64,000 nucleotides of DNA from Candidatus Levyibacteriota bacterium (GTDB taxonomy: Bacteria; Patescibacteriota; Microgenomatia; Levybacterales; UBA12049): the NCBI GenBank assembly GCA_052034235.1, contig JBPOIT010000013.1:3257-67256 (forward strand), read 5' to 3'. Shown in pieces: positions 560 to 57,739 of the stretch (the stretch's first letter is position 1; each line of letters opens with the position of its first letter). Under the pieces are notes generated by a model that saw only the letters and a program-made list of their open reading frames with translations, was not told the origin of the DNA and did not search any database. The position numbers were made by a program, and so were the translations under genes.

Positions 560-2128
560 TTAATAAATTCCATTTTTCATTTGGAAGATTTTTTGTATTG
601 AGGGTTCGTAGATATCTGATAAAGATGCTGTTGTACCTTGGCATGACTTCTTTAGTGTGTAAATTCTTATTGAATAATTTTGGTCTGGGTTTGGAAAAGT
701 TTTTTCTAGAGTAAAGAAACGCTCCATACCTAAGAGTTGATCGTGTCTCGTCACAAAATATGCAGGATACTTTGAGGTAAGACATTTAAAAGAATCAATT
801 CCAGTAAACATTTTTGAATCTATATGTAGCGGAGCAAGATTGTGAGTTCTTTGTGAATAGACATTTATTGCGCTTTCCGGGTTTCCGATAGTAAAGCCAA
901 AGAGAACCAATGCCACTTCGTTTTTCGAATCTGTTTTCAAAAATTCCATTGCCTCGTAAATTCCATGTCCTGACGTTTGACCCTGAATGTGTGTAGTATC
1001 AGCAAAGTGTGATACTTTTGCGGTTTGTGAAATATATTCTTCCGGATAAAAAATGAGCAGTATTGTAATCACAAACGGAATTATTGCAGAAAATAAGACA
1101 ATAACTTTTTTCCAATAAGTTCCCACCCACAATAGATAAAGAACATAACCAGCTGGAATCACGAGAAACGGCAGGAGTGAAACAATATAACGCAGGCTTT
1201 GTGATTTGCCAGAAATAATTTGCAAAAGCAGCGCTGATAGAAAAAAGATACTGAATGCCAACGAATATTTCAGTTTCTTTTTACTCAGGAGATATAACCC
1301 GACTAAACCTGCTAAAAAAGTGAGAGGGGTTAAAAAGACAAATCCTATTTCAAAAAAACCAAAAAGATTTTTTATCCATGCTTCTATAGGAAAAGTGAGT
1401 AGTTCTCCAAGTGTATAAGCATAACGATTATTAGTGTGAAATGTTTGCCAAAAAAGTGGATTGATAAATAAGAGGAAATCGACACAAAAAAAAGTAAGCG
1501 CAGCAACTGCGTAGGCAGTTACACGATTGATCTTTTTTTCTTTTATAGTGTAACCAAGAATGATCAAGGTAGCTGCAACGACAAAAAGTAAAGCCGAAGA
1601 TTTGATAAAAAATCCTATCCCTAATATTGACCCCAGAAGGATACTATTTTTAACATTTGGTTTGTGAAGGACGTTAATCAATGCAATACATGACCATACA
1701 CCAACAAAGGCAATTCCTGCCTCCAATAGAGCTTGCCTGTTATAAAAAACAAAAAGTGGGGTTATTGCAAAAAGCAATGACGCAATAAGTGCAGCTTCTT
1801 TATTTACGATCTTTATTCCAAGTTTAAATATACCTAGTAGTGTTAGCAAACCAAAAAGGACTGATGTAAACCTTCCTGCATAAAGTGAATCAGGAAAAAT
1901 ACTTGCGAAAAATCCGAAAATCCAAATCATCAAAGGCGGCTTTGCATCAAGAAGTGAATCATATAAATGCCCCGCCATATGCGTATGAGACCACGCCCAA
2001 TCAATATAAATAGATTCATCATTAAAAATCGGAAGTAAATTGAGATTTGCCAAATGAAGCAATAAATACAAAAAACTAATTGAGATGAGTTCTTTATGAA
2101 GGATAATTATTTTATTCCAAAAACTCAT
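560..2128 (-). CDS. GT-C family integral-membrane glycosyltransferase, ArnT/GT83-like (lipid-linked-sugar dependent)
   Basis: 522 aa and hydrophobic throughout. The first extracytoplasmic loop carries LPIFNDESIYIDWAW, the DE motif of ArnT/PMT-type GT-C enzymes. Paralog of 55029..56546. Confidence 0.6.
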   Translation of the reverse strand: MSFWNKIIILHKELISISFLYLLLHLANLNLLPIFNDESIYIDWAWSHTHMAGHLYDSLLDAKPPLMIWIFGFFASIFPDSLYAGRFTSVLFGLLTLLGIFKLGIKIVNKEAALIASLLFAITPLFVFYNRQALLEAGIAFVGVWSCIALINVLHKPNVKNSILLGSILGIGFFIKSSALLFVVAATLIILGYTIKEKKINRVTAYAVAALTFFCVDFLLFINPLFWQTFHTNNRYAYTLGELLTFPIEAWIKNLFGFFEIGFVFLTPLTFLAGLVGLYLLSKKKLKYSLAFSIFFLSALLLQIISGKSQSLRYIVSLLPFLVIPAGYVLYLLWVGTYWKKVIVLFSAIIPFVITILLIFYPEEYISQTAKVSHFADTTHIQGQTSGHGIYEAMEFLKTDSKNEVALVLFGFTIGNPESAINVYSQRTHNLAPLHIDSKMFTGIDSFKCLTSKYPAYFVTRHDQLLGMERFFTLEKTFPNPDQNYSIRIYTLKKSCQGTTASLSDIYEPSIQKIFQMKNGIY

Positions 2129-2144
2129 GCTACTTTCTTATAAT

Positions 2145-3623
2145 TTATTTATTCCGTAGATCAAAAATGATGTATTGGTCGGTTTTTTCTAGGATTTTGT
2201 AGGTTTTGGCAAAAACCATATCGGCTTCTGTTGGGTTGAGAAGGACGAGGTAGCTGGCTCCTTTTTGGACCAGAATTGGCATGTCTGCTTGGAAACTTGG
2301 CCAACCTTTGCGTTTGGTGTGGTACAAAAGAGTCGTATCGCCGGTCATATTGGCAACAACTTTTGCATCTTTAGGAGTTAACCTATCAACTGCAGCACCG
2401 GCAGCGATGATTGAACGATTGTTTATATTGAAATAATCTTTGATTTGTTGCCAGCCAAACCAGAACATACCAACAAGTGCCGCAATAAGGATAATTCTGC
2501 CAGCAGGGAATTTTTTAAATCGTAATGCATAGAGATAATAACTTCCGATTGCAAAACAGATTGAGACACTTGGCATAACAAGAATTTGATAATAATCATG
2601 CTGGACGTTCCCAGTTGCGAAAATGCTGATGTAGAGTAAACTGCTTACGATAAAAGAAAGGAAAAACCACTTTTCTTTCATCTTCCAAAGTTTGAAGACA
2701 CCAAAAGCTAAAATAAGCATACCCGCGTAGCCTGAGATCAGCTTGGTTAAACGCTCATAAAAAAGCCAGCGGAAAAATGATGGTCTAAACCTGATACCAT
2801 TACCATTAAGAAGCCACATATTTGCAGGTACTCCTTCAGGATACTGCGTTATCCATATACGCCAGCCAATAAGTGGAGCGACTGCGATTGCCGCAAAAAA
2901 ATATAATTCCCACACTTTTATAAATCTCCATCCCCACTGTTGAAACACAATAGCAAGCATTGGCAGAACAAAAAACAGAGCATATGGTTTGAGAAGAAAA
3001 GCAGATGATGTGAATACGAGTGCCAAAACAAAAGAGAGATAGGTATTTTTGAGAGATGTTTTTGATTTTTGTTTTTTTCTGTTCACCTTTTCCTCGACCC
3101 ATTTATCAAAAAAATAAATTCCTCCTGTGACAGCAGTCACCATAGTTGTATCTGGCAAAATTGTTCTACCGTAATAAATGTTGTACGGAATAAACATATA
3201 AAAAAACGTTGTCAAAAGTCCAATGGGCTTATTACTATGTTTTGAGACAATCAGATATAAAAAGAGCCCAGTAAGTACCGAGGCAAACATGGAAACAAGT
3301 CTCCCCCACTGCTCAATACTAAATATCCCAAACAATTGATAAAAGCCAGCTTGGAAAAGGTTATAAAGAGGAAATTCGACAAAGCGATATCCTTCCGGAT
3401 TATCTACGCCTGTTTGGATGTTTGAGATATCATCATAACGAGGATGGAGTACATCGTATCCCTGATTTACAAAGTTTCTTGAAACTGCTGAAGTATCAAC
3501 TTGTCTCCAGCTATGCCAATCAGCAATTGGGTTATCAAAACCGTGAAGACGTACAACAAATCCTAAAAGAAGGATACCTGTTAGGATTATCTGGACGGTT
3601 TTTTTATTTTTTAAAGTAATCAT
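2145..3623 (-). CDS. GT-C family integral-membrane glycosyltransferase (GT39/PMT_2-like)
   Basis: 492 aa polytopic membrane protein with N-terminal TM then an aromatic-rich loop (DNPIADWHSWRQVD). No soluble catalytic domain. Confidence 0.5.
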   Translation of the reverse strand: MITLKNKKTVQIILTGILLLGFVVRLHGFDNPIADWHSWRQVDTSAVSRNFVNQGYDVLHPRYDDISNIQTGVDNPEGYRFVEFPLYNLFQAGFYQLFGIFSIEQWGRLVSMFASVLTGLFLYLIVSKHSNKPIGLLTTFFYMFIPYNIYYGRTILPDTTMVTAVTGGIYFFDKWVEEKVNRKKQKSKTSLKNTYLSFVLALVFTSSAFLLKPYALFFVLPMLAIVFQQWGWRFIKVWELYFFAAIAVAPLIGWRIWITQYPEGVPANMWLLNGNGIRFRPSFFRWLFYERLTKLISGYAGMLILAFGVFKLWKMKEKWFFLSFIVSSLLYISIFATGNVQHDYYQILVMPSVSICFAIGSYYLYALRFKKFPAGRIILIAALVGMFWFGWQQIKDYFNINNRSIIAAGAAVDRLTPKDAKVVANMTGDTTLLYHTKRKGWPSFQADMPILVQKGASYLVLLNPTEADMVFAKTYKILEKTDQYIIFDLRNK

Positions 3624-6600
3624 TACTGTCCTTTCATAATCCTACCCTGATCATCAAACATAAATATGACATTTTGGTCAGTTTTTTGTGCAGAGATTTG
3701 AGCTCGTGCATCTTCAATCGTTCCAACATGGTGAACCTGCGGAAGCCGATCACGATAAATAAACCATAGCGCATCATTCAAACCAACTGGGAAGAGCCAG
3801 ACTGAATCATACATATATGGAGCGCCTACAAAATATAAGTTCGTACTATTTGAAAAGCTTTCGTGTTCCAGACGGAAATAAGCTAGTGTTTCTTTGGTAA
3901 TTGAGCTTACTTTGGCCCATTTTTTGCCCATATGCTGATTTTCCTGGTAATAAACAAATGACATGATTGTCACAATAATAATGAGTCCAATGGTTATATA
4001 TTTTTGTTTCATATGCATAAGCACTACTGCTATAAAATTAAGCGCAGCAACAAACATGATGACAAATCCAACAGATGCTAAATAAAGATATCTTGGAGCT
4101 ATATTTCCCAGTCCAAGGAATGGAAGTAAACTAACTGCCGCAAACACCAATCCAAAACACACGAGAACGATTTCGTTATGTTTAAAGACATGAATAAGTT
4201 TTCGTCTAAATGTATAGAGAATAATTCCAACAATTACCATAAGGATCAAAAGTATTGAAGCGGCAAGTAATGAGTCTTCCCTGAGTCCTGAGCGGAGTGA
4301 ATCATACAGAGGAAATGCTGTATTTCCGCCAAAGAATACCAAGAGATAGCCAATGTAGTTTCCTACAAAATTGAACGGCAGATTGAGAAGATTATAACTA
4401 TAATCCCCACCACCACTGAACGCATTGGAGATCGCTCTCATAGCAAAATATGCAGGGACTAAAAGTACAAAAGGCAAATAGTGAAGCATCAGATTTTTCT
4501 TGAGTTTTGGTCTGGTTATGAATAGATCAACCACAACAAGCAGAAGTGGAATAATTACGGCTATTTCATAGGTTAAGAAGGCAAGTATGCTTAAAATAAA
4601 TGCTGTTGTGTAGGAAGGCATTGGATGCTTTCCGTTTCTGAATTTAATAAAGGCAAGTACTACATAGACAATAAACATACTTCCCATCGTTACAGATATC
4701 GTTGAGAACCAGAAAAGATTTTCATGATGAACCGGATGCAGTGCAAAAAGTACTGCAGTAACGAAACTAAGGAATCTCTTTTTAAAGAGTTTTTGTGAAA
4801 GATAATAAACGCCAAGCACGGTTATAAAATGCATAAGAAGCGTGAATAGATGATATCCTTGCGGCTGGAATGAGAAGAGTTGGTAAAGGAAATAAACGAC
4901 TGTTTTATCAAAAGGTCTATAGAAGAAATTATCAGCATTAATAAAGTAACCTGGAATATCTTTCAGTTCTGTCGTTGCTGCCCATTTGAGCCACGTGAAG
5001 TCATCAGCGACAAAAAAGTTACCTATAGATCCTGCGTATGCGGTAAGAATAATGACCAGAAGATAGATGAGTACCATGACTCTGGATGTAAAGAATTGGA
5101 ATAATTCTTGTTTGTAATTAAAGGTTTCCTTTTTATAAAGATATGCACCTCCAACTCCTATACCCAATAACATCCACATAGGTTCAGCTACTTTAGATGC
5201 CTCAAAAACATCGATCAAAATAGCATTTATTAAAAGCCCGACAACCCCTCCAGATAGTCCAAAGAGTAATGCTTTGATAATTGGATCTTTAACCAAAGGC
5301 ACGCTGTTTTTTAAGAAAATGCCTAATATGACAAAGATAAAGAGGAATGATAATAAGCCAACAAGCCCGGTTTCACCAAGTGCCCGAAGATAGTCATTAT
5401 CCGTTGCAAGTGTTAACGTCGAATATCCAGTGCCAAAGACCGGACTGAAAAGAAATGCGTTCCAGTTTCTTGGCCATTCAGCCTGGAAACGAGTTGTAAA
5501 TGAGATATCAAGTGCATATGCTTTTTTGATAAGAAAAGTCCCTGAGATAGATGATATCGCAACTTCATCCATGGTAAGCCTTTTCAATTGTGCATCTGTT
5601 AAAACAGTTGAGAAACCGCTACTTGGTGTCGCAATAGTACTTTTGTCACCTACCATAAAATCACTAGCAGGTGGTACTTCTGAAGCTTTAATTTCTTCAG
5701 CTTCCTTCGTTTTGGCGATAATTTCTTTTAAGTCAGAAGGCAAAGCTTCTTCTGTTGAAACAACCTGTACTTGCTGAATCGTTTTCCCAAAACGCTTAAT
5801 TGTCGCGTCGCTTGATATGGACATGGCGCCTATGCTGATAATCAAAACTGGAATAATCCAACGTTTGCGATTCCAGAAAACAAGCATCGATGTAATACCC
5901 ACAACATATGCTCCAAAAGACGTACGGGAAGAGGTAAAGTTAAGAACATCTAGTGCCAAAATAGCGAGTATAAATAGAAGCGCCTTATACTTAAAACGCT
6001 TTACTGCAAAAAATAATGCAACAAGAATTGGAATGACAAAAACCATGTATGCTGAAAGATCATAGTGCCCTCCAAATGTTGAAGAAACACGCGACGTCTC
6101 TGTTAAACAAAGCGGAATACCTTTTGCAAATTCTTCATTTCCTGTTAAGAATGCCGGAAAACAAAAAGGGTATTTTTCGAAAAAATTAGGGAACATCGCC
6201 CATAAAATCGTGTAGAATCTCTGTCCAAAACCATAAATGACAACACCAAGAACAGTTACACAAAGCGTAATGAGATAAAAATAGACATCCTTAACATGTC
6301 TCACTGTCGCAAATGCGATGAAAAACAGAATCATGTATTCAATTCGCCTTGCGTATTGAAGTCCGGCAACAGTTGGGAAGAAATTTACCAGGTTTGGGGC
6401 AATAAAAAGCAAACAATAAATAAGAGACGCAAGCCCGGCAATCCAGTAGAGAACAATTGCGTATCCTTCTGGTCGAGGTAGTGAAACTTTGCGACGCAGC
6501 AGCTGTACAAACCAAATGATAGCAAGGGTCAGTATGACAAAGTCTTCAAGTCGTATGTAAACCCACGTACGATCGACATGGACACTTGGGAGTTTGGGAT

Positions 6601-6679
6601 AAAGTGCAGTAAAAAGAATTGCAAAAGCAACTCCAAAACGAAGTAAATTATCATCCAAAAACTTCAAGAGTTTTTTCAT
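3623..6679 (-). CDS. 1018-aa fusion: O-antigen-ligase/Wzy_C-like domain followed by a second polytopic GT-C-like domain
   Basis: The N-terminal half contains PVFGTGYSTLTLATDNDYLRALGETGLVGLL, matching the GxGxxxxxxxxx(H/D)NxYLxxLxExGxxG signature of WaaL/PglL/Wzy_C ligases. The C-terminal roughly 480 aa form another multi-TM block (FFVADDFTWLKW...) with a soluble tail. Confidence 0.5.
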   Translation of the reverse strand: MKKLLKFLDDNLLRFGVAFAILFTALYPKLPSVHVDRTWVYIRLEDFVILTLAIIWFVQLLRRKVSLPRPEGYAIVLYWIAGLASLIYCLLFIAPNLVNFFPTVAGLQYARRIEYMILFFIAFATVRHVKDVYFYLITLCVTVLGVVIYGFGQRFYTILWAMFPNFFEKYPFCFPAFLTGNEEFAKGIPLCLTETSRVSSTFGGHYDLSAYMVFVIPILVALFFAVKRFKYKALLFILAILALDVLNFTSSRTSFGAYVVGITSMLVFWNRKRWIIPVLIISIGAMSISSDATIKRFGKTIQQVQVVSTEEALPSDLKEIIAKTKEAEEIKASEVPPASDFMVGDKSTIATPSSGFSTVLTDAQLKRLTMDEVAISSISGTFLIKKAYALDISFTTRFQAEWPRNWNAFLFSPVFGTGYSTLTLATDNDYLRALGETGLVGLLSFLFIFVILGIFLKNSVPLVKDPIIKALLFGLSGGVVGLLINAILIDVFEASKVAEPMWMLLGIGVGGAYLYKKETFNYKQELFQFFTSRVMVLIYLLVIILTAYAGSIGNFFVADDFTWLKWAATTELKDIPGYFINADNFFYRPFDKTVVYFLYQLFSFQPQGYHLFTLLMHFITVLGVYYLSQKLFKKRFLSFVTAVLFALHPVHHENLFWFSTISVTMGSMFIVYVVLAFIKFRNGKHPMPSYTTAFILSILAFLTYEIAVIIPLLLVVVDLFITRPKLKKNLMLHYLPFVLLVPAYFAMRAISNAFSGGGDYSYNLLNLPFNFVGNYIGYLLVFFGGNTAFPLYDSLRSGLREDSLLAASILLILMVIVGIILYTFRRKLIHVFKHNEIVLVCFGLVFAAVSLLPFLGLGNIAPRYLYLASVGFVIMFVAALNFIAVVLMHMKQKYITIGLIIIVTIMSFVYYQENQHMGKKWAKVSSITKETLAYFRLEHESFSNSTNLYFVGAPYMYDSVWLFPVGLNDALWFIYRDRLPQVHHVGTIEDARAQISAQKTDQNVIFMFDDQGRIMKGQ

Positions 6680-6686: not shown

Positions 6687-7280
6687 TTAACGGAACCATG
6701 CAGCGCGACCTAAGTGATAATGTAACTCTTTTTCACTTCTCTCGCCTATTACTTTGGCAGGTACTCCACCTACAATTTCAAAAGCTCCAACATCCTTTGT
6801 AACAACTGCACCAGCAGCAACAATTGCACCTTTACCTATAGTTACTCCTGGCAAGATGATTGCTCTCGGACCAACAAAGACGTAGTCTTCTATAATAACA
6901 GATTGTGGTACTGCTTTAAATTCCGGATCGTGAATATCATGCTGGCAATTATAGACCATGACTTCGCTCGCAAAATCTACATGATTGCCAATCTGAAGCT
7001 TGGCTCGTCCATCCAGAACAACGCCTTCACCAATTATCGTATCTTTGCCAATCGTAATATTTGAAGGATTATAAAATCTGGCACCTGTGTGAATTGTTGA
7101 TCCTTCACCAATAATCATCCCTCCTGCTCTATAAAAAAATCTCCTAACATGGTGAAATGGAACATGACCTACAATATGCAAAATAAAAATAAAAAATTCT
7201 AAAAGCACTGTATTGGTACGGTTTTTACCCTTGTTATAAAATTCTCTTGAATTAAGTGTTCTACCTTCTCTATCTTTCAT
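6687..7280 (-). CDS. hexapeptide-repeat (LbH) sugar O-acetyltransferase, WbbJ/WcaF-like, with N-terminal membrane anchor
   Basis: Repeated [LIV]G-x4 hexapeptides ([35 protein letters not shown]...[19 protein letters not shown]). One hydrophobic helix near the N-terminus. Confidence 0.7.
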
Positions 7281-42513: not shown

Positions 42514-42535
42514 GCTTATGATTATACCTAAGACA

Positions 42536-44195: not shown

Positions 44196-44261
44196 ACCTA
44201 GATTCTAACAGCTTTTTATGCGCTTGCATATGTGTTAAGCTCATGTTACGATATTTCCACG

Positions 44262-44528
44262 ATGAATTTTGGCCCTACAATCCCCTTCGGTCAGGCACTA
44301 ATTATTTACTTTGTTACAACCTGGATTCTGATATGGAAAGGAATTGCATTATGGAGAGCAGCGCAATCACATCAGCGCAACTGGTTTATTGTAATGCTCG
44401 TTCTTAATCTTGATACATTGGGAATCCTTGAAATAATTTATTTGTTTAGATTTGCTAAAAAGCGACTGACGCTTAAAGATATACAACACTGGTTTGAAAA
44501 AACCTTTACCCGCAGATCTTCAAAGTAA
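44262..44528 (+). CDS. small two-TM membrane protein of unknown function
   Basis: ATG at 44262 within ORF-track frame 44232..44528. MNFGPTIPFGQALIIYFVTTWILIWKGIALWRAAQSHQRNWFIVMLVLNLDTLGILEIIYLF, then a basic tail. Confidence 0.35.
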   Translation: MNFGPTIPFGQALIIYFVTTWILIWKGIALWRAAQSHQRNWFIVMLVLNLDTLGILEIIYLFRFAKKRLTLKDIQHWFEKTFTRRSSK

Positions 44529-49864: not shown

Positions 49865-49896
49865 ATTAATCCTCCTTTCTTTAATTTTTTTTCCAC

Positions 49897-49952
49897 AAAA
49901 AAACCTTTCGTTCACTACTTATTACGAAACGTAATAAATAAGGAACGAAAGG
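49897..49952 (-). terminator. strong hairpin plus U7 (second terminator-like element of the hisG leader)
   Basis: The minus-strand RNA forms a perfect 10-bp stem (CCUUUCGUUC...GAACGAAAGG) with an extended inner stem, followed by U7 (49903..49897). It lies between the T-box core and the hisG RBS. Confidence 0.5.
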
Positions 49953-50169: not shown

Positions 50170-50189
50170 TAGATACTATAAGCTTTTAT

Positions 50190-51110
50190 CTATAAACCTA
50201 TTTTTCTGCGGATTTTATAAAATTGTTTTTTTAAATTTGTCGACTCTTCTCCAATCTTTTTATCATAAGACCAAAAATGCAGCTGTTTTGTTGATTCGTT
50301 TACCGATTCTTCAAACCCCTTTATGACATCTTCTGATTGCACCTCAGCAAAACCTTTACGTTCCCATACTTTGAGACATGTAATGAATTCGTAAAACGCT
50401 TCAAGCAGTGAAAGCACTAAACCATGAAGTCCGTCTTTATAACCTTTTCTGGCAAAATATCTGCTAAGAAATTCATGTACGGGAAGCATAAGAATATCTC
50501 GCCAATGGAATTCTTTATTCTCTTCTATGCGTTCCCGTGCAGTTATTGACGTATAATTATCAAGTTTACGAAGAAATTGTGAAATCGAATCATAATTAAA
50601 ATGAGTAAGAGCATTTTCTTCATGCGGTCCTAAATCGACAACTAATCCATGCACTTCCGCCTGAGCATGAATTTTATTGGGCCATGTTACTTTACCTTTT
50701 CTGAAAAAACGAATGTTGTAATCAGGCCACCAACCAGTATGCTGCATCCATTTATTAAAAATAATATTTTTCCTCGGTATTCGAACACATTCAGCTTTAG
50801 AAGTGCCTTCTGCAATCTCCTGAAGCTTATAGACTAAACTTTGCGGTACAATTTCATCCGCATCCACAACAAGTATCCAGTCCCCTGTTGCCTTACTAAT
50901 CGCGAAATTTCGTGAAGGTTCTACAAAACCCATATTTTTATGAGGAAAAATATGTGAAGTATATTTTTTGGCGATTTCGATCGTTTTGTCAGTTGATTCG
51001 TCATCGACAATAATTATTTCATCAGCCCATTTTACTGATTCCAAACAATCCTTAATTCGTTTTTCTTCGTTGAAGACAGTCATTACGACCGAAATAGATG
51101 GTTTATTCAT
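50190..51110 (-). CDS. GT2 family glycosyltransferase (type D paralog)
   Basis: ISVVMTVFNEEKRIKDCLESV...IIIVDDESTDKT...LVVDADEIVPQSL. Confidence 0.7.
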   Translation of the reverse strand: MNKPSISVVMTVFNEEKRIKDCLESVKWADEIIIVDDESTDKTIEIAKKYTSHIFPHKNMGFVEPSRNFAISKATGDWILVVDADEIVPQSLVYKLQEIAEGTSKAECVRIPRKNIIFNKWMQHTGWWPDYNIRFFRKGKVTWPNKIHAQAEVHGLVVDLGPHEENALTHFNYDSISQFLRKLDNYTSITARERIEENKEFHWRDILMLPVHEFLSRYFARKGYKDGLHGLVLSLLEAFYEFITCLKVWERKGFAEVQSEDVIKGFEESVNESTKQLHFWSYDKKIGEESTNLKKQFYKIRRKIGL

Positions 51111-52632
51111 GTTTTTTAAAGAGTAACCGTTTTATTGCAAAAAGTTCCTTTTTAGCAAAAAAGTAAAAAATTGAAACGTATGTTACAATTCCAAGTAAAA
51201 TAACGAGCCCCAAACTGAGAAAATCGTGTACCAGTAATTTGGTGCCGGCAAAAACAATTATACCCATTACTACTGTGCAAAACAAAGGCTTATAAATACT
51301 TTCAATAAAACTGAATTGTACGGATTGTTTGACCAGTTTTGCAGTGTAGAGAATAGTAAGCGAGATAACAAAGGTCGCAATCGCAACCCCGTTAAATCCA
51401 TAAAAATAGATTAAAATCGGTGTTAAAATCCACGTACCAATAGTCCAGATAACCATGAGTTTAAGTGTTGTTTTCACTCTTCCTGTCGCGTCAAGTATAT
51501 TTACCAGTATGCCAGAGAGTGAGGAAACTGCTGCATTGAGACAGAAGAATATCAAACTCATCACTGCTGGTTCCCATTTATGCCATTGAGGAAAATACTG
51601 GATAATATATGGCATGGTAAGCATGACACCCGTTAAAACTGGAAACATAAGACTTGCGACAAAAAAGAAAGATTTTTCAATTGCTTTTCTCAAGACTTCG
51701 GTATTATCCTGAATGCGTGAGTATGCAGAAAAGGTTACTTTGGTGACGCTATCAACAATATATCTATACGCCATAAATGCAATTCGTTGCGCAAAACCAA
51801 TATAACCAATCTCTGTGAAAGAAAGAAACTTTGTCAGAATCACAGTCAACATATCATCCTTTATTGTAGCAAGTATATTTTTGGCTTGAAATTGTGCACC
51901 AAATTTCAGATGATGTAAAGATTCTCTGTCAATTCCTATGCGTATTTTCCAAGGAGCTATCGCGTAATAAATTGGGACTGTTATAATACTCGAAACCAAG
52001 AATGCATAGGTATAACTTTCCAAACGATATCCCTGAAGAATAAGAAAAATTAACAAGACATTAAATACCAATGATTCTACAATTTGAGGAATAATAAGTT
52101 TTTCAAATTTAATTTTTCGCTCAAGAATAATCGAAGGAATTGTTTTGAACGAAGAAATAAATATTGTAGCCACTAAAGCCACCAATAATCCTTCACCGGC
52201 ATTACCCAATTGAAAGTATGATGATAGTTGATCACGAAAGGCAAGAACACCAAGGAAAATGAGCAGCGTAATACCCGACTGAAGTGTGAAACTCGTTTTT
52301 ATATCATTATCAGTTAAATCCCCCTTTTTTTGTATCAAAGCTGCACCTAAACCAAAATCTGTAAAGAAGCTGATCACCCGCTGAATTGCGATAACTGCAA
52401 CATAAATACCCACATCAGCAGGAACGAGAACACTGAGAATAATAAGCGAAGCAGTAGTTTGAATAATTTGAAGCACAAACGTCCTTGAAATCAGCGCCAA
52501 AACTCCCTGCACCGATTTTTTGCCAAGCCCTAGTAGTTCATGCTCGTCCATAATGTAAATCGTACCACAGAATGAGGCTTTCGAGAACAGCCCGCATGAT
52601 AACCGGCAGATTTGCTCCAGTTTGATGCCCAA
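51103..52632 (-). CDS. Wzx/PST-family polysaccharide flippase-like membrane protein
   Basis: Polytopic with about 12-14 hydrophobic segments. LALISRTFVLQIIQTTASLIILSVLVPADVGIYVAV...GLGAALIQKKG is typical of Polysacc_synt. The true start is probably the internal Met near 52551. Confidence 0.6.
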   Translation of the reverse strand: MGIKLEQICRLSCGLFSKASFCGTIYIMDEHELLGLGKKSVQGVLALISRTFVLQIIQTTASLIILSVLVPADVGIYVAVIAIQRVISFFTDFGLGAALIQKKGDLTDNDIKTSFTLQSGITLLIFLGVLAFRDQLSSYFQLGNAGEGLLVALVATIFISSFKTIPSIILERKIKFEKLIIPQIVESLVFNVLLIFLILQGYRLESYTYAFLVSSIITVPIYYAIAPWKIRIGIDRESLHHLKFGAQFQAKNILATIKDDMLTVILTKFLSFTEIGYIGFAQRIAFMAYRYIVDSVTKVTFSAYSRIQDNTEVLRKAIEKSFFFVASLMFPVLTGVMLTMPYIIQYFPQWHKWEPAVMSLIFFCLNAAVSSLSGILVNILDATGRVKTTLKLMVIWTIGTWILTPILIYFYGFNGVAIATFVISLTILYTAKLVKQSVQFSFIESIYKPLFCTVVMGIIVFAGTKLLVHDFLSLGLVILLGIVTYVSIFYFFAKKELFAIKRLLFKKHE

Positions 52633-53257
52633 GTTCTCTTGGGTAATGAGTTACTCCAATTTCTTTGATCTTTAGTCCTTTCTTTTTTGCTTTAGCAAGA
52701 ATTTCAGTTGAAATCAGTGCTCCTTCTGAACGAAGCGGTAAAATTGTATCAACAGCGTGCCGTGTGAACATTTTAAAAGCACAATCGATATCCTTGAAGT
52801 AAAATCTGAAAAGAACTAAATCCCATACTTTTAATAAATACATTAACAATAATCGTTTAAAAAGATTTTTATCTCTCCGTTTTTTTCGGTAACCAATGAC
52901 AACATCAGCTTTATCAATTTCTTCAATAAATTTTGATATCTCTGAAAAATCAAATTGCCCATCACCGTCAGTAAAAACAACAGTATTATATTTCGTGTTT
53001 TCAAATCCAGCTTTAAGGGCAGCACCATATCCTCGGTTAGGCTGATGTGAAACAACATGCAGCCTTTTATCTTGCTTAGCAAGTCTTTTGGCAATTTTCA
53101 AGGTATCATCATAAGAACCGTCATCAACCATAACGATTTCCCATTTTGAAGCAATTTTTTCAGCAGTTTTAATTGCTGATTTAACTGTTTGTTCAATATT
53201 TTCTTCTTCGTTCCAAAAAGGAAAGAAGATTGAGAGTTCGGAGAGTTTTTTAGCCAC
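52538..53257 (-). CDS. soluble polyprenol-phosphate sugar synthase (GT2, DPM1-like)
   Basis: SIFFPFWNEEENI...IVMVDDGSYDDT...FTDGDGQFD...GYRKKRRDK...DCAFKMF. Confidence 0.75.
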   Translation of the reverse strand: MAKKLSELSIFFPFWNEEENIEQTVKSAIKTAEKIASKWEIVMVDDGSYDDTLKIAKRLAKQDKRLHVVSHQPNRGYGAALKAGFENTKYNTVVFTDGDGQFDFSEISKFIEEIDKADVVIGYRKKRRDKNLFKRLLLMYLLKVWDLVLFRFYFKDIDCAFKMFTRHAVDTILPLRSEGALISTEILAKAKKKGLKIKEIGVTHYPRELGHQTGANLPVIMRAVLESLILWYDLHYGRA

Positions 53258-54983
53258 GTTTATTAACCTTTCTGGAAAGGATTATACCAGCTAGCAGTAC
53301 AATAACTCCAGTGAGAGATAATGCATTCCCCAGCATTTCAATTGGCGTTTGTGTATAAATAACTTCAAGCGTATGTTTTCCCTGAGGAACATTCACAAGA
53401 AGCCCTTTTTTAAAATATTTAAATTCCTGCTGCTTATTGTCTATATAGACATGCCAGCCCGGGAAATAAGCAACGGAAAGTAATACTTCAGTTTGTTTTG
53501 CTGCCTCGATTTCTGCTTTGATGATGGTCGTCTTCTCACTATATGAAATTACTTTAATATTTTTATTCTCTGTTAGTTTTTGTTTTGGAACATCCTTAAT
53601 ACTGACTGGTTTTTGAAATCCTTTTGGCATATACTCATCCGAAATGAGAGAAATGTCCCATGTTAATTCTTCTTTACTCGTAAAGTCTTTTGCTGTTTTT
53701 TCATAAATTTTATCAGGGGCAAATAATTTTCCGTTAAAAACAATAATCGCTGCTATGATAACGATTCCTGCCGCAATCTGCACTGTTGATTTTTTCTGTA
53801 AGAGTACAAAGATCGCCCCTCCCAGGAACGAAAGACAAAAAGTTATAAGGAGTAAGAATCTCCATGGGAATTGAAAAAATGCCATGTGCGGAATGCTATC
53901 CCAAATAAATTTAGAAAATTGGCTAGTTAGAAAAATCGAAAAGACTGCAACCAGTATGGATAAGAGAATTGCGAAGCGCACGCGTTTTTGCGCTCGATAG
54001 ATATATAAAGGGATGAGAGATAATAAAGCTAAGAGAATATGTAATTTGCCAATTTTAAAAGACATCCCGTCTAAACAGCCAGGTGCCGAACCTGCAAATC
54101 CCCACTGACTTTCCCATAATTGGCTGAGACAGAGAAAGTGATCTTTATAATCTGAGCCACCGCCAACAACAGATAATACGTTGGTGTATTGCATTTCAAA
54201 GAGGACTGGCAGCCAATAAAACCCAGAGAGCAAAATACCAAGAAGAAAACTCAGAAGAATAAAAAATGATTTAATAGTCTGAAATTTAAATCTGGCGATA
54301 GAATAGAGCAAGATTGCAAAACCAAACAAAAATGGGGTTACCATCATGGCAGTCAGGTTATGAGAAACAACAATCGCACAGTACCCTAAAGCAGCAGCAG
54401 CAATCCAATACCATACATTGCTTTGACTTTTGGTTTTTGATTTTGAGTCAGTTTTTTTTGTTACATTCTCAAAGATTTTATAGAGTGCAAGAAACGCAAG
54501 TGGTAGAAATCCATATGCCCATAACTCCCCAATTGCTCCACGTACATAAATATTTAGTGCGTGATACGGAGCATACATATAGAGCATTGCTGCGACAATC
54601 CCTCCAATTTTGCCCCAGAATTCTTTAGCTAGAAGATACATAAAGATTCCGGCAAGAAGTGTCCCTAGTCCTATCATAATTTTTGTGGCGATTAAACTAT
54701 CAAAGCCGAGCAGATTGAAAATTCCGCCGACATAATAAGCAAGCGGGCCGTAAAAATTAAAAATTGGATATCCATAGTTATAACCCAGGTCTGGAACCCA
54801 ACGTACTGGAAACATACCATCGGCAAGTGCAGTTTTCATTTCATAAACTCTCGCTACTTGTGTATCGTCGTGTACTCGAAAAAATCCTGCAGAAAAAAGT
54901 GGTTTGACAGCAAAGAAAGAAAGTACAATAACGAGTATTAGGGCAGCATATTTTTTAAAATAGTTCATTTTTAAATTATACAT
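53250..54983 (-). CDS. YfhO-like polytopic GT-C-type membrane protein with C-terminal extracytoplasmic domain and terminal TM (type F paralog)
   Basis: 577 aa with FRVHDDTQVARVYEM, YVRGAIGE, YFPGWHVYIDNKQQE and a final helix LTGVIVLLAGIIL. It overlaps the downstream DPM1-like gene by 8 nt. Confidence 0.4.
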   Translation of the reverse strand: MYNLKMNYFKKYAALILVIVLSFFAVKPLFSAGFFRVHDDTQVARVYEMKTALADGMFPVRWVPDLGYNYGYPIFNFYGPLAYYVGGIFNLLGFDSLIATKIMIGLGTLLAGIFMYLLAKEFWGKIGGIVAAMLYMYAPYHALNIYVRGAIGELWAYGFLPLAFLALYKIFENVTKKTDSKSKTKSQSNVWYWIAAAALGYCAIVVSHNLTAMMVTPFLFGFAILLYSIARFKFQTIKSFFILLSFLLGILLSGFYWLPVLFEMQYTNVLSVVGGGSDYKDHFLCLSQLWESQWGFAGSAPGCLDGMSFKIGKLHILLALLSLIPLYIYRAQKRVRFAILLSILVAVFSIFLTSQFSKFIWDSIPHMAFFQFPWRFLLLITFCLSFLGGAIFVLLQKKSTVQIAAGIVIIAAIIVFNGKLFAPDKIYEKTAKDFTSKEELTWDISLISDEYMPKGFQKPVSIKDVPKQKLTENKNIKVISYSEKTTIIKAEIEAAKQTEVLLSVAYFPGWHVYIDNKQQEFKYFKKGLLVNVPQGKHTLEVIYTQTPIEMLGNALSLTGVIVLLAGIILSRKVNKRG

Positions 54984-55028
54984 CTTTACTCTTGTATACG
55001 TGGTCTTTTGGGTAACTTTTATATTTTC

Positions 55029-56546
55029 TCATTCTGAGAGTAACTGATAAACAGTATGATATGTATCCTTTTCTATCTTTTGATATTGATATATCTTTTT
55101 AACGGGCCATGCTTTTGGAGCTTCACCTGTAAATCTGCAACTTGAACACGATTGATAAAAAACAACATATGTTGGCATTTTTTTACTCATTTCAATAAGT
55201 TCTTGAGGAGGATTATCTTCAACTGGCCATATCCCTTCAATAGTTATATTTGGATTGTCATGCAAATAAATTTCAAGTGCGTATGGAAGGAGACCAAACG
55301 TACCGCCAGTCGCTACATATATTCTTTTGTTTTTACTTTCTTTTTCTAAAAGAGCAACTGTCTCAGCAACTCCTCCCCCAGCAGGCCATGCTCTGTAATA
55401 CTGATTAAGATCAGATCTTGCGATTGAAGCTTTATCAAAGTCTGTCAGAATGAACATATCTGTAATGACATATGGAAGCATAAAAACAAAGAGAATTCCA
55501 GCTTTTATCCACCTATTAGGTAATCCATGAAGAATGGTATAAAAAGAAAATGCCCCTAATGCTAAAAGCGGCATTGTCATAAATAAAATATATCGAGGGT
55601 ATAATAATTTACCAAATGTCGCTAGTGCAATAAATGGAATGATAAACCAAGCAAAGAGTAATAATTTTTCTCTCAGATATTTTTTGCCGATAAAAAAAGA
55701 AGCAAAAATAAAAATAAGGACAGGTACCTCCGTGTAATCAACAAGCCATCCCCAAAGCGTAATGATATTCGGAGTAAGAAAAGTGAATGGATGCTGAATC
55801 CATTCATTAAATGGATAAACAAAAACTGCGTCTTTTTGAGCTACGATATAAAAGAATGGTGAGAGACGCAATAACGCGTAAATTGCTTGCGCGATAAAAA
55901 CCGCGATAAAGGCACAGATACCCCATCTTATTAATTTCTTTTTCCAAACCTTATCTTTAAAATTAAAGAGGAAGAGTGAAAATGGAAGGAGAATTACTGC
56001 AAAATTTGCACTTGATTTATTGAGGAGTCCTATCCCAATAACGACACCCAACAAAACTGCTAAACGAAAATCTCGTTTTCTTACCAGAAGAATTTCTATA
56101 TATAACGACCAAATAATAAATGCCGCAACTAACGAATCATAGAGCGCAATCCTGTCATAAACGAGTGCAAATGGGTAGAGTAAATACAGAAATGACGCAA
56201 CAATAGCAATTTTTTTACTACGGAATAATTCTTTTGTGAGAAAGAATAATCCCACCATAGAAGCCAAACCTGCCATTACAGAAACCAGTCTGCCAGCAAG
56301 AAGTGGATCGGAAATGACATACATATTTAGCATGGCTAGCCAAACAAACAGTGGTTGCTTTCCGTCAGTGAGCGAAATAAAAATCCAATCAGGATCATTT
56401 CCAGCTATCTGCGCCCAACGAAGGTAAATTGCTTCATCAGTAAAAATTGGAAAAGCTGTAATATTTGCAAGCCTGGTAAAAAGATATACTGCAAGAAATC
56501 CAAAACCAAGGATCCAAAGAATTTGTTTTTTATGTAATCGCGTCAT
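55029..56546 (-). CDS. GT-C family integral-membrane glycosyltransferase, ArnT/GT83-like (type A paralog of 560..2128)
   Basis: AFPIFTDEAIYLRWAQ DE motif, then LYPFALVYDRIALYD. 505 aa polytopic. Confidence 0.6.
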   Translation of the reverse strand: MTRLHKKQILWILGFGFLAVYLFTRLANITAFPIFTDEAIYLRWAQIAGNDPDWIFISLTDGKQPLFVWLAMLNMYVISDPLLAGRLVSVMAGLASMVGLFFLTKELFRSKKIAIVASFLYLLYPFALVYDRIALYDSLVAAFIIWSLYIEILLVRKRDFRLAVLLGVVIGIGLLNKSSANFAVILLPFSLFLFNFKDKVWKKKLIRWGICAFIAVFIAQAIYALLRLSPFFYIVAQKDAVFVYPFNEWIQHPFTFLTPNIITLWGWLVDYTEVPVLIFIFASFFIGKKYLREKLLLFAWFIIPFIALATFGKLLYPRYILFMTMPLLALGAFSFYTILHGLPNRWIKAGILFVFMLPYVITDMFILTDFDKASIARSDLNQYYRAWPAGGGVAETVALLEKESKNKRIYVATGGTFGLLPYALEIYLHDNPNITIEGIWPVEDNPPQELIEMSKKMPTYVVFYQSCSSCRFTGEAPKAWPVKKIYQYQKIEKDTYHTVYQLLSE

Positions 56547-57739
56547 AGGTGTTTTTTCTTTGCTTTAAGATGTTTTTTTTCTTTCATAAGGCTCCATATA
56601 GCAAGATTATACATAAACGGCAGAACGACTAGCAAATATCTTGGCCATGTTGGAACAACTGATAGGAAAATCAAATAAATAATAATCCAAATTGCACACA
56701 ACACAATAGGCTCTTTTATCTGTTCACGAATAATCTTATAGAGTGCATAAAGTGAGAGCAGAACAAGAAGAGGCCATCCAAGATGCCATTCTGAGACATT
56801 CATATACTCCCCCCACCATGTATGCCATTTACCAGTAAATAATATTTCCCATGGAGCCATGAATGATCCTTGTGCACCACTGCTGTAGAAATTGATAATC
56901 CATTTTTGAACACCCAGAAATTCAGTAAAAGAATTGCCGAGAATAAAAAATTGAATATACGTTACGGTAAAGACCACGCCTGCAATAGGTAAACTAATCG
57001 TGTACTTTTTAAAAAGTTTATATTGCTTCGTAAGTATGAGATAGAAAACTGATAAAGCTATGACAAGTGGGAAAGTTGATGCAGCAGATTTAGTAGCCGC
57101 CGCAAGACCGAGCATAATTGAAGATCTGATTAACTGCTTTTTAATAAGAAAAGTCATTGCAAGAAGTAACAATCCAAGGAAAAGTAAATCGAGAAACGGT
57201 GCACGAAGTTGTGTATAGAAGAGCGGTTCAAATGAGAAAAAGAGTACTGGTAGAAAAGAAAGCACGCGATCTTTAAATATTTGCATACTAAAAAGATAAA
57301 GTGCACCAAGTGCAAAAAGACCGCTTAAAAGAGCAAATATATTTTGATTTTTAAAGACAACTTCTGATAAACCGATAAGGTATTTCCCAAAAGGTGGAAC
57401 TTCTGCATTGAGTAATGTCGGATCACGTCCATGGATATATTCCCACCCAGCATAGGTATAGAGACTATCATCACCAATTGATTGCTTTTTAAAATCATTG
57501 CCTTTTTTCCCCTCTTCACTTTTTGCATACCAATGATCGTCCCAGACGCAGGTAAATGGATTCACATGCGGGTCTAAATTCTCACATGCGGGCTTGGTAC
57601 TCCATTGAGAATATTCGTAACGTTCTTTCCAGAAATCCGGATCATATGGGGTAAGATATTCTTGTCTATATTCAAATATCCGAAAACCTAGGTGTATTGA
57701 AAAAAGGACGACGAGTAAAAGAAATACTTTTTGTTTCAT
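56543..57739 (-). CDS. GT39/PMT-like GT-C membrane glycosyltransferase (type B paralog of 31204..32370)
   Basis: NAEVPPFGKYLIG, SFEPLF and WHTWWGEY blocks shared with 31204..32370. Confidence 0.5.
   Translation of the reverse strand: MKQKVFLLLVVLFSIHLGFRIFEYRQEYLTPYDPDFWKERYEYSQWSTKPACENLDPHVNPFTCVWDDHWYAKSEEGKKGNDFKKQSIGDDSLYTYAGWEYIHGRDPTLLNAEVPPFGKYLIGLSEVVFKNQNIFALLSGLFALGALYLFSMQIFKDRVLSFLPVLFFSFEPLFYTQLRAPFLDLLFLGLLLLAMTFLIKKQLIRSSIMLGLAAATKSAASTFPLVIALSVFYLILTKQYKLFKKYTISLPIAGVVFTVTYIQFFILGNSFTEFLGVQKWIINFYSSGAQGSFMAPWEILFTGKWHTWWGEYMNVSEWHLGWPLLVLLSLYALYKIIREQIKEPIVLCAIWIIIYLIFLSVVPTWPRYLLVVLPFMYNLAIWSLMKEKKHLKAKKKHL

Follow-up and report, generated by a model that had tools for sequence, protein, structure and literature searches.

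The window analyzed here, 64,000 nt of contig JBPOIT010000013.1 from a Candidatus Levyibacteriota bacterium (all positions below are those of this whole stretch), carries a cluster of ~50 densely packed genes at positions 560-59763 (~59 kb), in which polytopic glycosyltransferases of the GT-C type dominate. We consider it probable that this cluster is one vertically inherited envelope-glycan supercluster composed of ancient paralogs, which would encode a transmembrane glycosylation system of several components, i.e., an assembly line for an extracytoplasmic glycan. The paralogy of its genes, the age of their splits, their synteny and purifying selection, as well as the GT-C fold and its acidic motif, are directly supported by the data presented here. 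Judging by its protein matches, the host is a Levybacteria-like bacterium of the Microgenomates group, within the Candidate Phyla Radiation (CPR, or Patescibacteria): the best matches of the GT-C proteins are proteins named Levybacteria, Roizmanbacteria or 'Patescibacteria group', and the glutamine synthetase GlnA shares 78% identity with its counterpart in a Levybacteria metagenome-assembled genome (MAG) with a 1.14-Mb chromosome, by which measure the cluster would make up ~5% of a ~1-Mb genome. CPR bacteria have extremely small cells, most have not been cultivated, they are believed to live on hosts, and next to nothing is known of their surface chemistry; a GT-C-dominated supercluster of ~59 kb, whose backbone is kept in many relatives, is a candidate for the main envelope glycoconjugate pathway of the Levybacteria-like group.

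The cluster is laid out as two co-directional minus-strand arrays with a plus-strand stretch (44232-48400) between them. The left array extends over 43.6 kb, from 44195 down to 560, and begins with a GT4 gene (43125..44195), and the right one (48397-59763) begins with a DPM1-like GT2 gene (59005..59763) and is oriented away from glnA (59931), purB and a hupE/ureJ gene. GC content is 31-38% over the cluster. Pfam scans of all open reading frames (ORFs) of at least 150 aa in the window, plus gap ORFs, identified ten GT2 genes (five of them DPM1-like and three of a type designated D), seven complete GT4 genes, an orphan N-terminal domain of GT4, a pair of Wzx-type (Polysacc_synt) flippase genes (at 28856 and 51103), one HisG-like protein, and a sugar-tailoring set of three NAD-dependent epimerase/dehydratases, two DegT aminotransferases, two hexapeptide acyltransferases and one FdtA-like cupin. 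A hydropathy scan counted 18 polytopic membrane proteins in the cluster, and GT-C or Wzx genes account for ~40% of its genes.

An earlier note on this sequence had described the locus as a mosaic of recurring paralog modules, grouped into types A to F, and its description of these modules held up well. Every ORF it named exists at the coordinates given, and all the peptides it quoted are present exactly, save that the third E-type protein, E3 (46535..48400), carries YDE where WDE had been claimed, its SPWHILLSR motif being in place. In an all-vs-all BLASTP comparison, identity was 27% over 443 aa for the A pair (A1, 560..2128, and A2, 55029..56546; E 1e-34), 31% over 325 aa for the B pair (B1, 31204..32370, and B2, 56543..57739; E 1e-39), 24% over 468 aa for the C pair (C1, 9999..11576, and C2, 33375..34928; E 2e-14) and 24% over 581 aa for the F pair (F1, 40825..42513, and F2, 53250..54983; E 2e-28). 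E1 (35773..37428) and E2 (37432..39135) share 38% over 550 aa (E 5e-105), with E3 ~24.5% identical to both (E 6e-25 and 1e-27), and the three D-type GT2 proteins (34925..35773, 48397..49149 and 50190..51110) share 26-34% (E 7e-24 to 6e-42). All these pairs are closer than unrelated GT-C proteins are to each other, as they have Smith-Waterman scores of 269-881 (z = 22-137 against shuffles), while the 129 cross-family pairs of 17 polytopic proteins have a median of 70 and do not exceed 133. The two Wzx genes and the five DPM1/GtrB-like GT2 genes (9012, 28035, 39125, 52538 and 59005, mutually 26-33% identical) were likewise recovered, and further paralog sets emerged that the earlier note had not listed, namely the GT4 genes 7284 and 30155 (33%, E 5e-42), the three epimerases, the two DegT proteins and the two hexapeptide acyltransferases. 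Thus a small set of recurring families does build the locus. Profile comparison even connects the GT-C families with one another in a single superfamily web (hhalign: A-E 99%, A-C 98%, E-C 98%, C-F 98%, A-B 95%), though such links among hydrophobic proteins may be inflated by composition, and on these comparisons the idea of a small toolkit appears right only at superfamily depth.

The earlier note had gone on to ascribe these paralogs to repeated duplication and shuffling at the locus, as a hallmark of a diversifying surface glycan, and here the evidence points the other way. No nucleotide-level similarity between paralog pairs was found in the window, where direct repeats reach at most 40 nt at 65-83% identity (the longest, of 40 nt, at 73%) and the longest inverted pair 50 nt at 70%. 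Paralogs within the window are only 24-38% identical, whereas their counterparts elsewhere, where found, are closer, at 42-81% in distant relatives and 90-98% in a sister species. E1, for example, has more than 120 cluster representatives at 50-57%, compared with 38% to E2; A2 has counterparts at up to 78%, compared with 27% to A1, and B1 at 45-72%, compared with 31% to B2. The best counterpart of A1 is 46% identical, as against 27% for A2, which more than 100 representatives outscore. B2 has a 94% ortholog in the sister species and is 31-36% identical to the best-matching B1 orthologs, while for E3 no counterpart above 27% was found in distant relatives. In simple neighbour-joining distance trees (a numpy implementation, 200 bootstraps) no two window genes were sisters; most copies grouped with orthologs from outside this genome at 94-100% bootstrap, with weaker values for E2 (72%) and E3 (50%). 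The absence of nucleotide similarity, the closer counterparts outside, the lack of sister genes within the window and the fact that the families are linked by profile-profile comparison together indicate that the duplications are ancient, the paralog families having probably split long before this lineage arose.

Several specific scenarios were rejected along the way. A single segmental duplication is rejected, as the paralog order is not colinear; on this point the earlier note, which had observed that the order differs between the 28-42 kb and 48-59 kb segments and argued against one clean segmental duplication, was right. A recent tandem duplication of E1 and E2 is contradicted by their 38% identity and their retention as a pair. 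Shuffling by mobile elements is rejected as well, as the window holds no long repeats, searches of it for tRNA genes and Rfam families returned none, and no transposase- or insertion sequence-related Pfam family occurs among its ORFs of at least 150 aa.

We then found that the order of the genes is itself inherited. Among the ortholog neighbourhoods that were compared, two sets, each lying on one contig, are particularly informative: L091 and L094 (72 kb), and the more distant L092 and L093 (~56 kb). The comparison with relatives covered window positions 20-60 kb, over which the window is colinear with L091+L094 at 42-81% protein identity, including the junction with GlnA, kept in L091. The shared order, named by start positions in the window, is GlnA, GT2(59005), the GT87-like gene (57736), A2, F2, GT2(52538), Wzx(51103), GT2(50190) and GT2(48397), then GT2(39832), GT2(39125), E2, E1, GT2(34925), C2, epimerase(32367), B1 and GT4(30155), and finally Wzx(28856), GT2(28035), GT4(26938), GT2(25941), an acetyltransferase, DegT(23874), DegT(20571) and epimerase(11545). 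Differences are confined to an extra GT-C gene between A2 and F2, a GT2 gene in place of the HisG-like one, an E-like GT-C gene plus a 199-aa ORF between C2 and epimerase(32367), and an oxidoreductase gene between GT2(25941) and the acetyltransferase. The same backbone order is found in L092+L093, at 47-72% identity in the backbone, and in L084, L086 and L089, and, among the 80 loci yielded by an alignment scan of metagenomes with the E family, it recurs in the 29 of at least 15 kb; those of at least 20 kb (~21 kb) have a median of 10 GT-C-like genes among 16. The conserved backbone consists of cytoplasmic GT2 and GT4 enzymes, one dehydratase/epimerase, the two Wzx flippases and a core of GT-C proteins (E2-E1, A2, F2 and the GT87-like protein). 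Within it, E2 lies immediately upstream of E1 in 58 of the 59 metagenomic loci with room upstream, usually with an overlap of 4 nt (as in related loci from L095 to L174; the junction in the window is 37428-37432), which suggests translational coupling and makes the E2-E1 tandem a candidate heterodimer.

Close relatives tell the same story. L088, from a strain ~99% identical, has the same genes over window 35-48 kb, and the sister species L175 is colinear, B2 included, at 90% nucleotide identity over window 50092-63706, with identical gene content over 50-60 kb. Between the window and L175, eight cluster genes have a ratio of nonsynonymous to synonymous substitution rates (dN/dS) of 0.02-0.10, the housekeeping gene purB having 0.04. 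Given that the window is colinear with distant relatives over 20-60 kb, the gene order is inherited, and the locus appears, from these comparisons, to be passed on vertically under purifying selection, stable rather than actively duplicating and shuffling.

Gene content does vary, at a small number of positions. Between the orthologs of E1 and GT2(34925) relatives have zero to six genes, mostly C-, F- and E-like GT-C genes, and the window has none; C-like genes are frequent in the variable slots of relatives. Around epimerase(32367) the window has C2 and B1, where other loci are empty or have a one-helix membrane protein plus a GT87-like gene, or another GT-C gene of ~500 aa. At the position of F1 most relatives have a 750-aa YfhO-like gene. 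B2 is missing at the matching position in distant relatives, L091 and L092 among them, and at matching positions in these relatives no close ortholog of E3, of 44579 or of the HisG-like gene was found. A further difference is a low-GC island (12560-20514; 31-34% GC compared with ~35-36% in its flanks) of three GT4 genes and three polytopic proteins that have no Pfam family (12560, 13590 and 17074), which appears lineage-specific and is absent from L094, the closest long relative, where DegT(20571) is directly followed by epimerase(11545). A GT4 and epimerase pair (21750-23877) is absent from L094 as well.

It is this variation, together with the recurrence of paralog families in different orders, that speaks for an actively expanding locus, in which local duplication and shuffling would go on repeatedly under diversifying selection on a surface glycan: the slots differ between relatives, the island and the GT4-epimerase insertion are missing from L094, and B2, E3 and 44579 are missing at matching positions in distant relatives. 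Against it stand the low identity of the paralogs, whose counterparts elsewhere, where found, are closer, the lack of sister genes in the trees and of DNA-level similarity between paralogs, the absence of transposase- or insertion sequence-related Pfam families among the ORFs scanned, an order inherited across distant relatives, gene content unchanged at 90% and ~99% nucleotide identity, and the low dN/dS values. We therefore regard this explanation as highly improbable, and its duplication part as largely refuted. Comparison with related loci had been proposed in the earlier note as a check for gene-content variation, and this is real, but it consists of individual GT-C genes being gained, lost or replaced at a small number of slots, together with one island, a pattern that is best described, on present sequence comparisons, as accessory-gene turnover on a fixed scaffold rather than local duplication. 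Many paralogs in scrambled order are thus not by themselves a sign of ongoing duplication or diversifying selection. Nor does the mosaic stand opposed to a linear pathway, as the earlier note had it: this is a false dichotomy, the paralog set being fully compatible with a linear pathway. The ALG pathway of the endoplasmic reticulum (ER) and the assembly of mycobacterial lipomannan and lipoarabinomannan (LM/LAM) are both sequential pathways run by GT-C paralogs.

Having established that the cluster is old and stable, we turned to its enzymes. Thirteen proteins are firmly predicted to be GT-C glycosyltransferases (A1, A2, 2145, B1, B2, C1, C2, E1, E2, E3, F1, F2 and 57736), and profile comparison alone adds four probable ones (13590, 17074, 44579 and the C-terminal half of 3623). 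In a crude hydropathy scan, which is not a dedicated topology predictor, the 13 firm members have 6-13 hydrophobic segments, with a gap of ~40-80 residues after the first transmembrane helix (TM1) in most. An acidic motif after TM1 is invariant or nearly so in the E family (D35-E36, as WDE), the A family (D37-E38) and the B family (D67-E68, PDE in B1), and D/E motifs of a similar kind can be seen in C1/C2, F1/F2 and E3 (YDE); WDE and SPWH..SR are both invariant or nearly invariant in the E family. Structures were predicted for B1 and E1, the other GT-C proteins being tied in by profile comparison. The AlphaFold model of B1 (pLDDT 90) matched STT3, AglB, ArnT, ALG3 and PimE in Foldseek with a probability of 1.00 and a query-normalised TM-score of ~0.55, and that of E1 (pLDDT 86) had ArnT (5ezm, E 3e-6) as its top match; Pmt1/2, Pmt4, PglB, ALG9, ALG12 and ALG6, as well as AftA, AftB, AftD and EmbB, were also among the fold matches. 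With no match to ArnT at sequence level, 'ArnT-like' denotes a fold here and not family membership, the 'ArnT-like' names in databases being automatic annotation.

Family assignments differ from protein to protein. Pfam PMT or PMT_2 matches above the gathering score were obtained for A1 (PMT_2, 69.9 bits; 10 predicted TM helices, with an NDES motif after TM1), A2 (PMT_2, 54.3 bits; TDEA motif), C1 (PMT_2, 30.9 bits), E3 (PMT, 24.2 bits) and the GT-C protein 2145..3623 (PMT_2 34.4 and PMT 30.8 bits), which is a singleton in the window with hhalign links to the A (96%) and E (95%) families; B1 and C2 had no match, C2 belonging to the C family by hhalign (100%). PMT_2 is a broad model that is also common to ArnT-like enzymes. 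The F proteins are of the YfhO/PTPS_related type: F1 matches PTPS_related (41.5 bits) and, by hhalign at 96.5%, the 750-aa YfhO-like group of relatives, and F2 matches YfhO (42.4 bits, cut-off 28.5) and PTPS_related (34.3 bits), the F family being linked at 99.4% to the 750-aa YfhO-annotated neighbours in relatives. Protein 57736..59004 resembles GT87 and MptA/B (GT87 24.7 bits against a cut-off of 25; NCBIfam MptB 27.3 against 40 and crt_membr 48.7 against 439), and its orthologs carry precomputed matches to PF26314 (MptA_B_family).

As a side observation, the B family (~390 aa; B1 has 388) has no Pfam model above threshold and is called 'hypothetical' in the sources, yet with 195 matches it is widespread in Patescibacteria; to judge by the B1 model, it is predicted to be a minimal GT-C without a large external domain.

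Among the GT2 enzymes, those resembling polyprenyl-phosphate-sugar synthases are of particular relevance. The solved structures nearest to the DPM1-like set are DPM synthase, GtrB and ArnC: protein 9012..9959, which has C-terminal TM helices and so is membrane-anchored, matches ArnC (E 1e-36) and GtrB (E 4e-29) over its full length, and 39125..39835 is nearest to DPM synthase (5mlz, E 2e-14), GtrB and ArnC, while 28035, 52538 and 59005 are tied to these two only by their 26-33% paralogy. Each DPM1-like gene adjoins a GT-C or Wzx gene: 59005 the GT87-like gene 57736, 39125 E2, 28035 Wzx 28856, and 9012 C1, with 52538 lying between F2 and Wzx 51103; four of the five adjacencies are kept in relatives. 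The D-type GT2 proteins have SunS and GmaR as their nearest solved structures, by their N-terminal nucleotide-binding region only.

In multi-component transmembrane glycosylation, as reviewed for GtrA/B/C, CsbB-GtcA-YfhO, GacI/J/K/L and L. lactis CsdAB/CD/EF, a C55-P-sugar is produced by a GT-A enzyme and carried outwards by a flippase of the GtrA or Wzx type, after which its sugar is passed on by a GT-C enzyme on the outer side of the membrane, with GacI/K/L representing a variant with a soluble GT-A and a Wzx flippase (PMC8035078). All three classes, the putative GT-A lipid-sugar synthase, the Wzx-type flippase and the GT-C, co-occur in the window, and this composition fits the Wzx-type variant (PMC8035078), which supports the mechanism proposed here. 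According to this mechanism, nucleotide sugars would first be tailored by the epimerases, DegT aminotransferases, acyltransferases and the FdtA-like protein (including the gene trio at 23874-25939); lipid-linked units would then be built in the cytoplasm by GT4 and GT2 enzymes, and single sugars would be loaded onto polyprenyl phosphate by the five DPM1/GtrB/ArnC-like GT2 enzymes. The lipid-linked intermediates would be exported by the Wzx-type flippases, whereupon the 13 firm and up to four probable GT-C enzymes would add sugars outside the membrane, probably in sequence, to a cell-wall glycan and/or surface proteins. That the GT-C enzymes use polyprenyl-phosphate-sugar donors is something we infer from the five co-located synthase-like GT2 genes. 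The likeness to the known systems thus extends to the synthase, the flippase, GT-C proteins with an acidic loop motif and the existence of multi-pair genomes; unlike them, five putative synthases and 13-17 GT-C proteins here share one locus, no GtrA-type flippase or GacJ-like partner was identified, the host is a CPR bacterium, and the GT-C families are only remotely related to characterized ones.

A number of observations weigh against this proposal. The donor lipids, the sugars and the acceptor are assigned from family membership only, and the order of the steps is likewise an inference. Sequence searches of solved structures with E1, with A2 and with profiles of the A, B and E families retrieved no GT-C protein, ArnT included, at E<=1, the only match being a chance-level one (E 0.56) to an unrelated peptidase, and E1 (17.8) and E2 (25.6) fall under the PMT_2 cut-off of 26.1; the possible inflation of the hhalign links has been mentioned. 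Four of the five DPM1-like GT2 proteins (28035, 39125, 52538 and 59005) have no TM helix and hence no membrane anchor. Soluble forms of the DPMS type are known (human DPM1, GacI), but these need a partner protein. The adjacency of the DPM1-like genes to GT-C or Wzx genes is not significant on its own, given that such genes make up ~40% of the total. A priming phosphoglycosyl transferase (Bac_transf, or Glycos_transf_4 of the WecA/MraY type) was not found in the window, nor was any match to the GtrA family in its ORFs of at least 150 aa or in two scanned gap ORFs inside the cluster, so that no local gene accounts for how the pathway starts or how polyprenyl-P-monosaccharides are flipped. Lastly, the colinearity applies to window 20-60 kb, the part that the comparison with relatives covered.

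The acceptor bears on a second explanation, by which the GT-C enzymes would mainly be protein glycosyltransferases, carrying out PMT-like O-glycosylation of S-layer, pilin or secreted repeat proteins, with the paralogs reflecting different protein or sequon specificities. The PMT and PMT_2 matches and the fold matches to Pmt1/2, Pmt4, STT3, PglB and AglB are in line with it, as are the similarity of the D-type GT2 proteins to SunS and GmaR, which are peptide/protein glycosyltransferases, and the gene for a secreted DUF5122 beta-propeller repeat protein that lies directly downstream of the cluster. However, neither MIR nor TPR acceptor-binding domains were detected by Pfam in any window ORF scanned, the SunS/GmaR match is confined to the N-terminal nucleotide-binding region, members of the YfhO, GT87/MptA-B and Wzy_C types suggest that the acceptor is a glycan or polymer, and a set of two Wzx flippases with GT4 enzymes and sugar-tailoring genes is characteristic of pathways that make lipid-linked oligo- or polysaccharides. 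All in all, we find a predominantly protein-directed role rather unlikely.

Whether the cluster constitutes a single system is a separate matter. It could instead combine two or three independent, juxtaposed pathways, each with its own Wzx and GT-A/GT-C pairs and making a different glycoconjugate, as its two Wzx flippases are unrelated, each having separate orthologs and a separate conserved sub-block (48-60 kb and 26-44 kb), as the divergent segment at 44.2-48.4 kb splits the two arrays, and as the left part (0.5-26 kb) has a Wzy_C protein together with classic sugar-tailoring genes. Against such a division, distant relatives (L091+L094 and L092+L093) keep the sub-blocks side by side and in the same order, which argues for functional coupling, and no sub-block has a priming transferase of its own. 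This arrangement has a real, if lesser, chance of being correct, and the single assembly line remains the interpretation we favor.

As an assembly line, the cluster resembles other known glycan machineries. It shares with the LM/LAM and arabinogalactan assembly of mycobacteria and corynebacteria its many GT-C paralogs and DPM1-like GT2 enzymes, with 57736 matching GT87 just below the cut-off and its orthologs matching MptA_B. In that pathway Ppm1 works with PimE, MptA, MptB, MptC, EmbA/B/C and AftA-D, GT-C enzymes that act sequentially on polyprenyl-P-monosaccharides. The mycobacterial genes are mostly dispersed, whereas those described here form one conserved super-operon, and the GT-C proteins encoded here are mostly PMT_2/ArnT-like or YfhO-like, not Emb/Aft-like; a UbiA-type polyprenyl-P phosphoribosyltransferase was not seen in the cluster. 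The ER ALG pathway employs strictly ordered GT-C enzymes (ALG3, 9, 12, 6, 8 and 10) fed by the dolichyl-P-sugar synthases DPM1 and ALG5, and Pmt1-Pmt2 is a precedent for heterodimers of paralogous GT-C proteins. ALG3, ALG9, ALG12, ALG6 and Pmt1/2/4 are among the fold matches of B1 and E1, but the locus is bacterial and lacks MIR domains and an oligosaccharyltransferase-type catalytic subunit. With Wzx/Wzy clusters for O-antigen, capsule or S-layer glycan it has in common the Wzx flippases, a Wzy_C protein, GT4 and GT2 enzymes and sugar-tailoring genes. A variable low-GC island is also typical of such clusters. It departs from them in that neither a priming transferase nor a chain-length regulator is present in the window, in that GT-C genes dominate, and in its deeply conserved architecture, as opposed to their serotype-variable pattern. 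A description of this architecture in CPR bacteria was not found in the literature, of which our coverage was incomplete; the locus belongs to known kinds of glycan machinery and stands out for its density of GT-C genes and its deep conservation.

A bolder form of the proposal is that relatives across the clade possess a Microgenomates-type assembly line, in which more than 10 GT-C enzymes from one super-operon act in sequence, E2-E1 form an obligate heterodimer and the accessory slots tune the glycan. We put this forward tentatively, considering it rather doubtful as a whole. If true, bacteria would have in this locus an equivalent of the ER ALG pathway or of mycobacterial LAM and arabinogalactan synthesis, E2-E1 would be an obligate GT-C heterodimer like Pmt1-Pmt2 or EmbA-EmbB, and interchangeable accessory GT-C slots would tune the surface glycan for host attachment or phage evasion.

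The remaining genes of the cluster are described from left to right, all on the minus strand unless otherwise stated. Following A1 and the GT-C gene 2145..3623, gene 3623..6679 encodes a protein of 1018 aa with 18 hydrophobic segments, in which a Wzy_C domain (34.3 bits, marginal against a cut-off of 31.7) is fused to a GT-C-like C-terminal half (PTPS_related, weak at 19.8 bits; hhalign 92% to the C family). Wzy_C is an O-antigen polymerase/ligase-like domain, and such a fusion of polymerase/ligase and GT-C is unusual. A hexapeptide-repeat acyltransferase for sugar N/O-acylation (6687..7280; Pfam Hexapep, 34% identical to 24971..25531) and a GT4 enzyme paralogous to 30155 (7284..8420; Glycos_transf_1, 131 bits) follow. 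The 182-aa product of 8424..8972 matches Glyco_transf_4 only, being a stand-alone N-terminal Rossmann domain of GT4. It may be a relic of a lost paralog, as its N-terminus matches that of GT4 30155 at 47% identity; its gene ends 3 nt before 7284-8420, which is a complete GT4 gene. The polyprenyl-phosphate GT2 gene 9012, which adjoins C1, and C1 itself are followed by an epimerase/dehydratase (11545..12525; Epimerase, 186 bits) whose L094 ortholog is 74% identical.

The low-GC island begins with a polytopic membrane protein (12560..13606; absent from L094) for which no Pfam, NCBIfam or hhalign family link was found. Next to it lies a probable YfhO-like GT-C protein of 714 aa with 11 hydrophobic segments (13590..15734), linked by hhalign to the 750-aa YfhO-like group (92%) and the F family (88%), for which Pfam and NCBIfam gave nothing beyond a weak partial MmpA match. 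A GT4 enzyme (15731..16999; Glycos_transf_1, 122 bits) precedes a probable GT-C protein of 729 aa (17074..19263; GC 31%), which has 10 hydrophobic segments, no Pfam or NCBIfam match, and hhalign links to the F (90%) and A (78%) families, and another GT4 enzyme (19267..20514; Glycos_transf_1, 60.7 bits) completes the island. Beyond it lie a DegT-type sugar aminotransferase (20571..21743; DegT_DnrJ_EryC1, 210 bits; L094 ortholog 73%), the GT4 (21750..22904; Glycos_transf_1) and epimerase/dehydratase (22897..23877; Epimerase, 122 bits) of the pair missing from L094, and a trio consisting of an FdtB-like DegT aminotransferase (23874..24971; DegT, 398 bits; L094 ortholog 53%), a hexapeptide acetyltransferase (24971..25531; Hexapep, 76.8 bits) and an FdtA/WxcM-like cupin of 134 aa, sugar ketoisomerase-like (25535..25939; FdtA, 41.6 bits), the last being too short for the 150-aa ORF list and recovered from a scan of the gaps between accepted ORFs. 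By its composition this trio resembles a dTDP-3-acetamido-3,6-dideoxyhexose pathway.

The right part opens with a GT2 enzyme (25941..26936; Glycos_transf_2, 74.6 bits) and a backbone GT4 enzyme (26938..28038), with orthologs of 32-40% at the matching position in L093, L094 and L174. Here and below, GT2 and GT4 assignments are by Pfam unless noted. The DPM1-like soluble GT2 28035..28829, also of the backbone, has same-position orthologs of 70-75%, and the adjoining first Wzx-type (MOP) flippase (28856..30130; Polysacc_synt_3 and Polysacc_synt) of 52-57%. Then come the backbone GT4 30155..31207 (orthologs 56-63%), B1, the backbone NDP-sugar 4,6-dehydratase/epimerase 32367..33344 (GDP_Man_Dehyd and Epimerase; orthologs 59-80%), and C2 in its variable slot, which has an ortholog (42%) in L094 only. 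The D-type GT2 34925..35773 (backbone; orthologs 46-77%) precedes E1, the downstream partner of the tandem, and E2, the upstream partner, whose orthologs are 50-59% identical. Two backbone GT2 enzymes, the soluble DPM1-like 39125..39835 next to E2 (orthologs 59-78%) and 39832..40785 (orthologs 53-75%), are followed by F1, which has a 50% ortholog elsewhere in L091. A conserved ORF on the plus strand (42392..43132), for which Pfam and NCBIfam gave no match, overlaps the start of F1 on the opposite strand by 122 nt and is kept beside F1 orthologs (97.6% identical in L088, 37% in L160). The GT4 gene 43125..44195, a backbone member with orthologs of 44-58%, ends this part.

The plus-strand stretch contains a small DUF5652 membrane protein (44232..44528; 75.9 bits) and, after it, two variable-slot genes: 44579..46531, which encodes a polytopic 650-aa protein with 13 hydrophobic segments and no Pfam or NCBIfam match, possibly a GT-C (hhalign 85% to the C family; homologs of 41-42% in L145, L153 and L163), and the divergent E-family member E3. 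The right-hand array, again on the minus strand, ends with the D-type GT2 48397..49149 (backbone; orthologs 64-79%). Before it lie a HisG-like protein with the ATP phosphoribosyltransferase fold (49169..49915; HisG 44.7 bits, above cut-off; TIGR00070 60.8 bits, under the 75.75 cut-off), whose slot is taken in L091 and L092 by a GT2 of ~300 aa, and the third D-type GT2 (50190..51110; backbone), with orthologs of 79% in L091 and 95% in L175. The second Wzx-type (MOP) flippase (51103..52632; Polysacc_synt_3, 150.6 bits) has orthologs of 64-74%, and the soluble DPM1-like GT2 52538..53257, also of the backbone, same-position orthologs of 72-77%. Among the GT-C genes of this array, F2 (orthologs 54-64%), A2 and the GT87-like gene (orthologs 58-68%) belong to the backbone and B2 to a variable slot. 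The soluble DPM1-like GT2 59005..59763, a backbone member next to the GT87-like gene, has orthologs of 61-77%, and of 98% in L175, the one in L091 occupying the same position next to GlnA.

Beyond the left end of the cluster, directly downstream of it and on the same minus strand, a gene that runs off the edge of the window (<1..495) codes for a secreted protein that has a signal peptide and whose beta-propeller repeats are of the DUF5122 family (DGKIVVGG type), a possible surface protein and glycosylation target. On the right, GlnA (59931-61370, plus strand) is 71-78% identical to proteins of MAGs labelled Levybacteria, Saccharimonadales, Kaiserbacteria, Paceibacterota and Nitrospira, in all of which its context differs, and so this glnA type may have undergone cross-phylum transfer or lie on mis-binned contigs. 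GlnA was rejected as a synteny anchor, as none of its 80 loci from many phyla has the cluster beside it. Finally, the right flank (62762-64000, plus strand) contains a metal-related set: genes for HupE/UreJ and for a metal-sensitive repressor of the CsoR type (63430-63705), both of which the sister species L175 has in the same order, and a DUF305 gene cut off by the edge.

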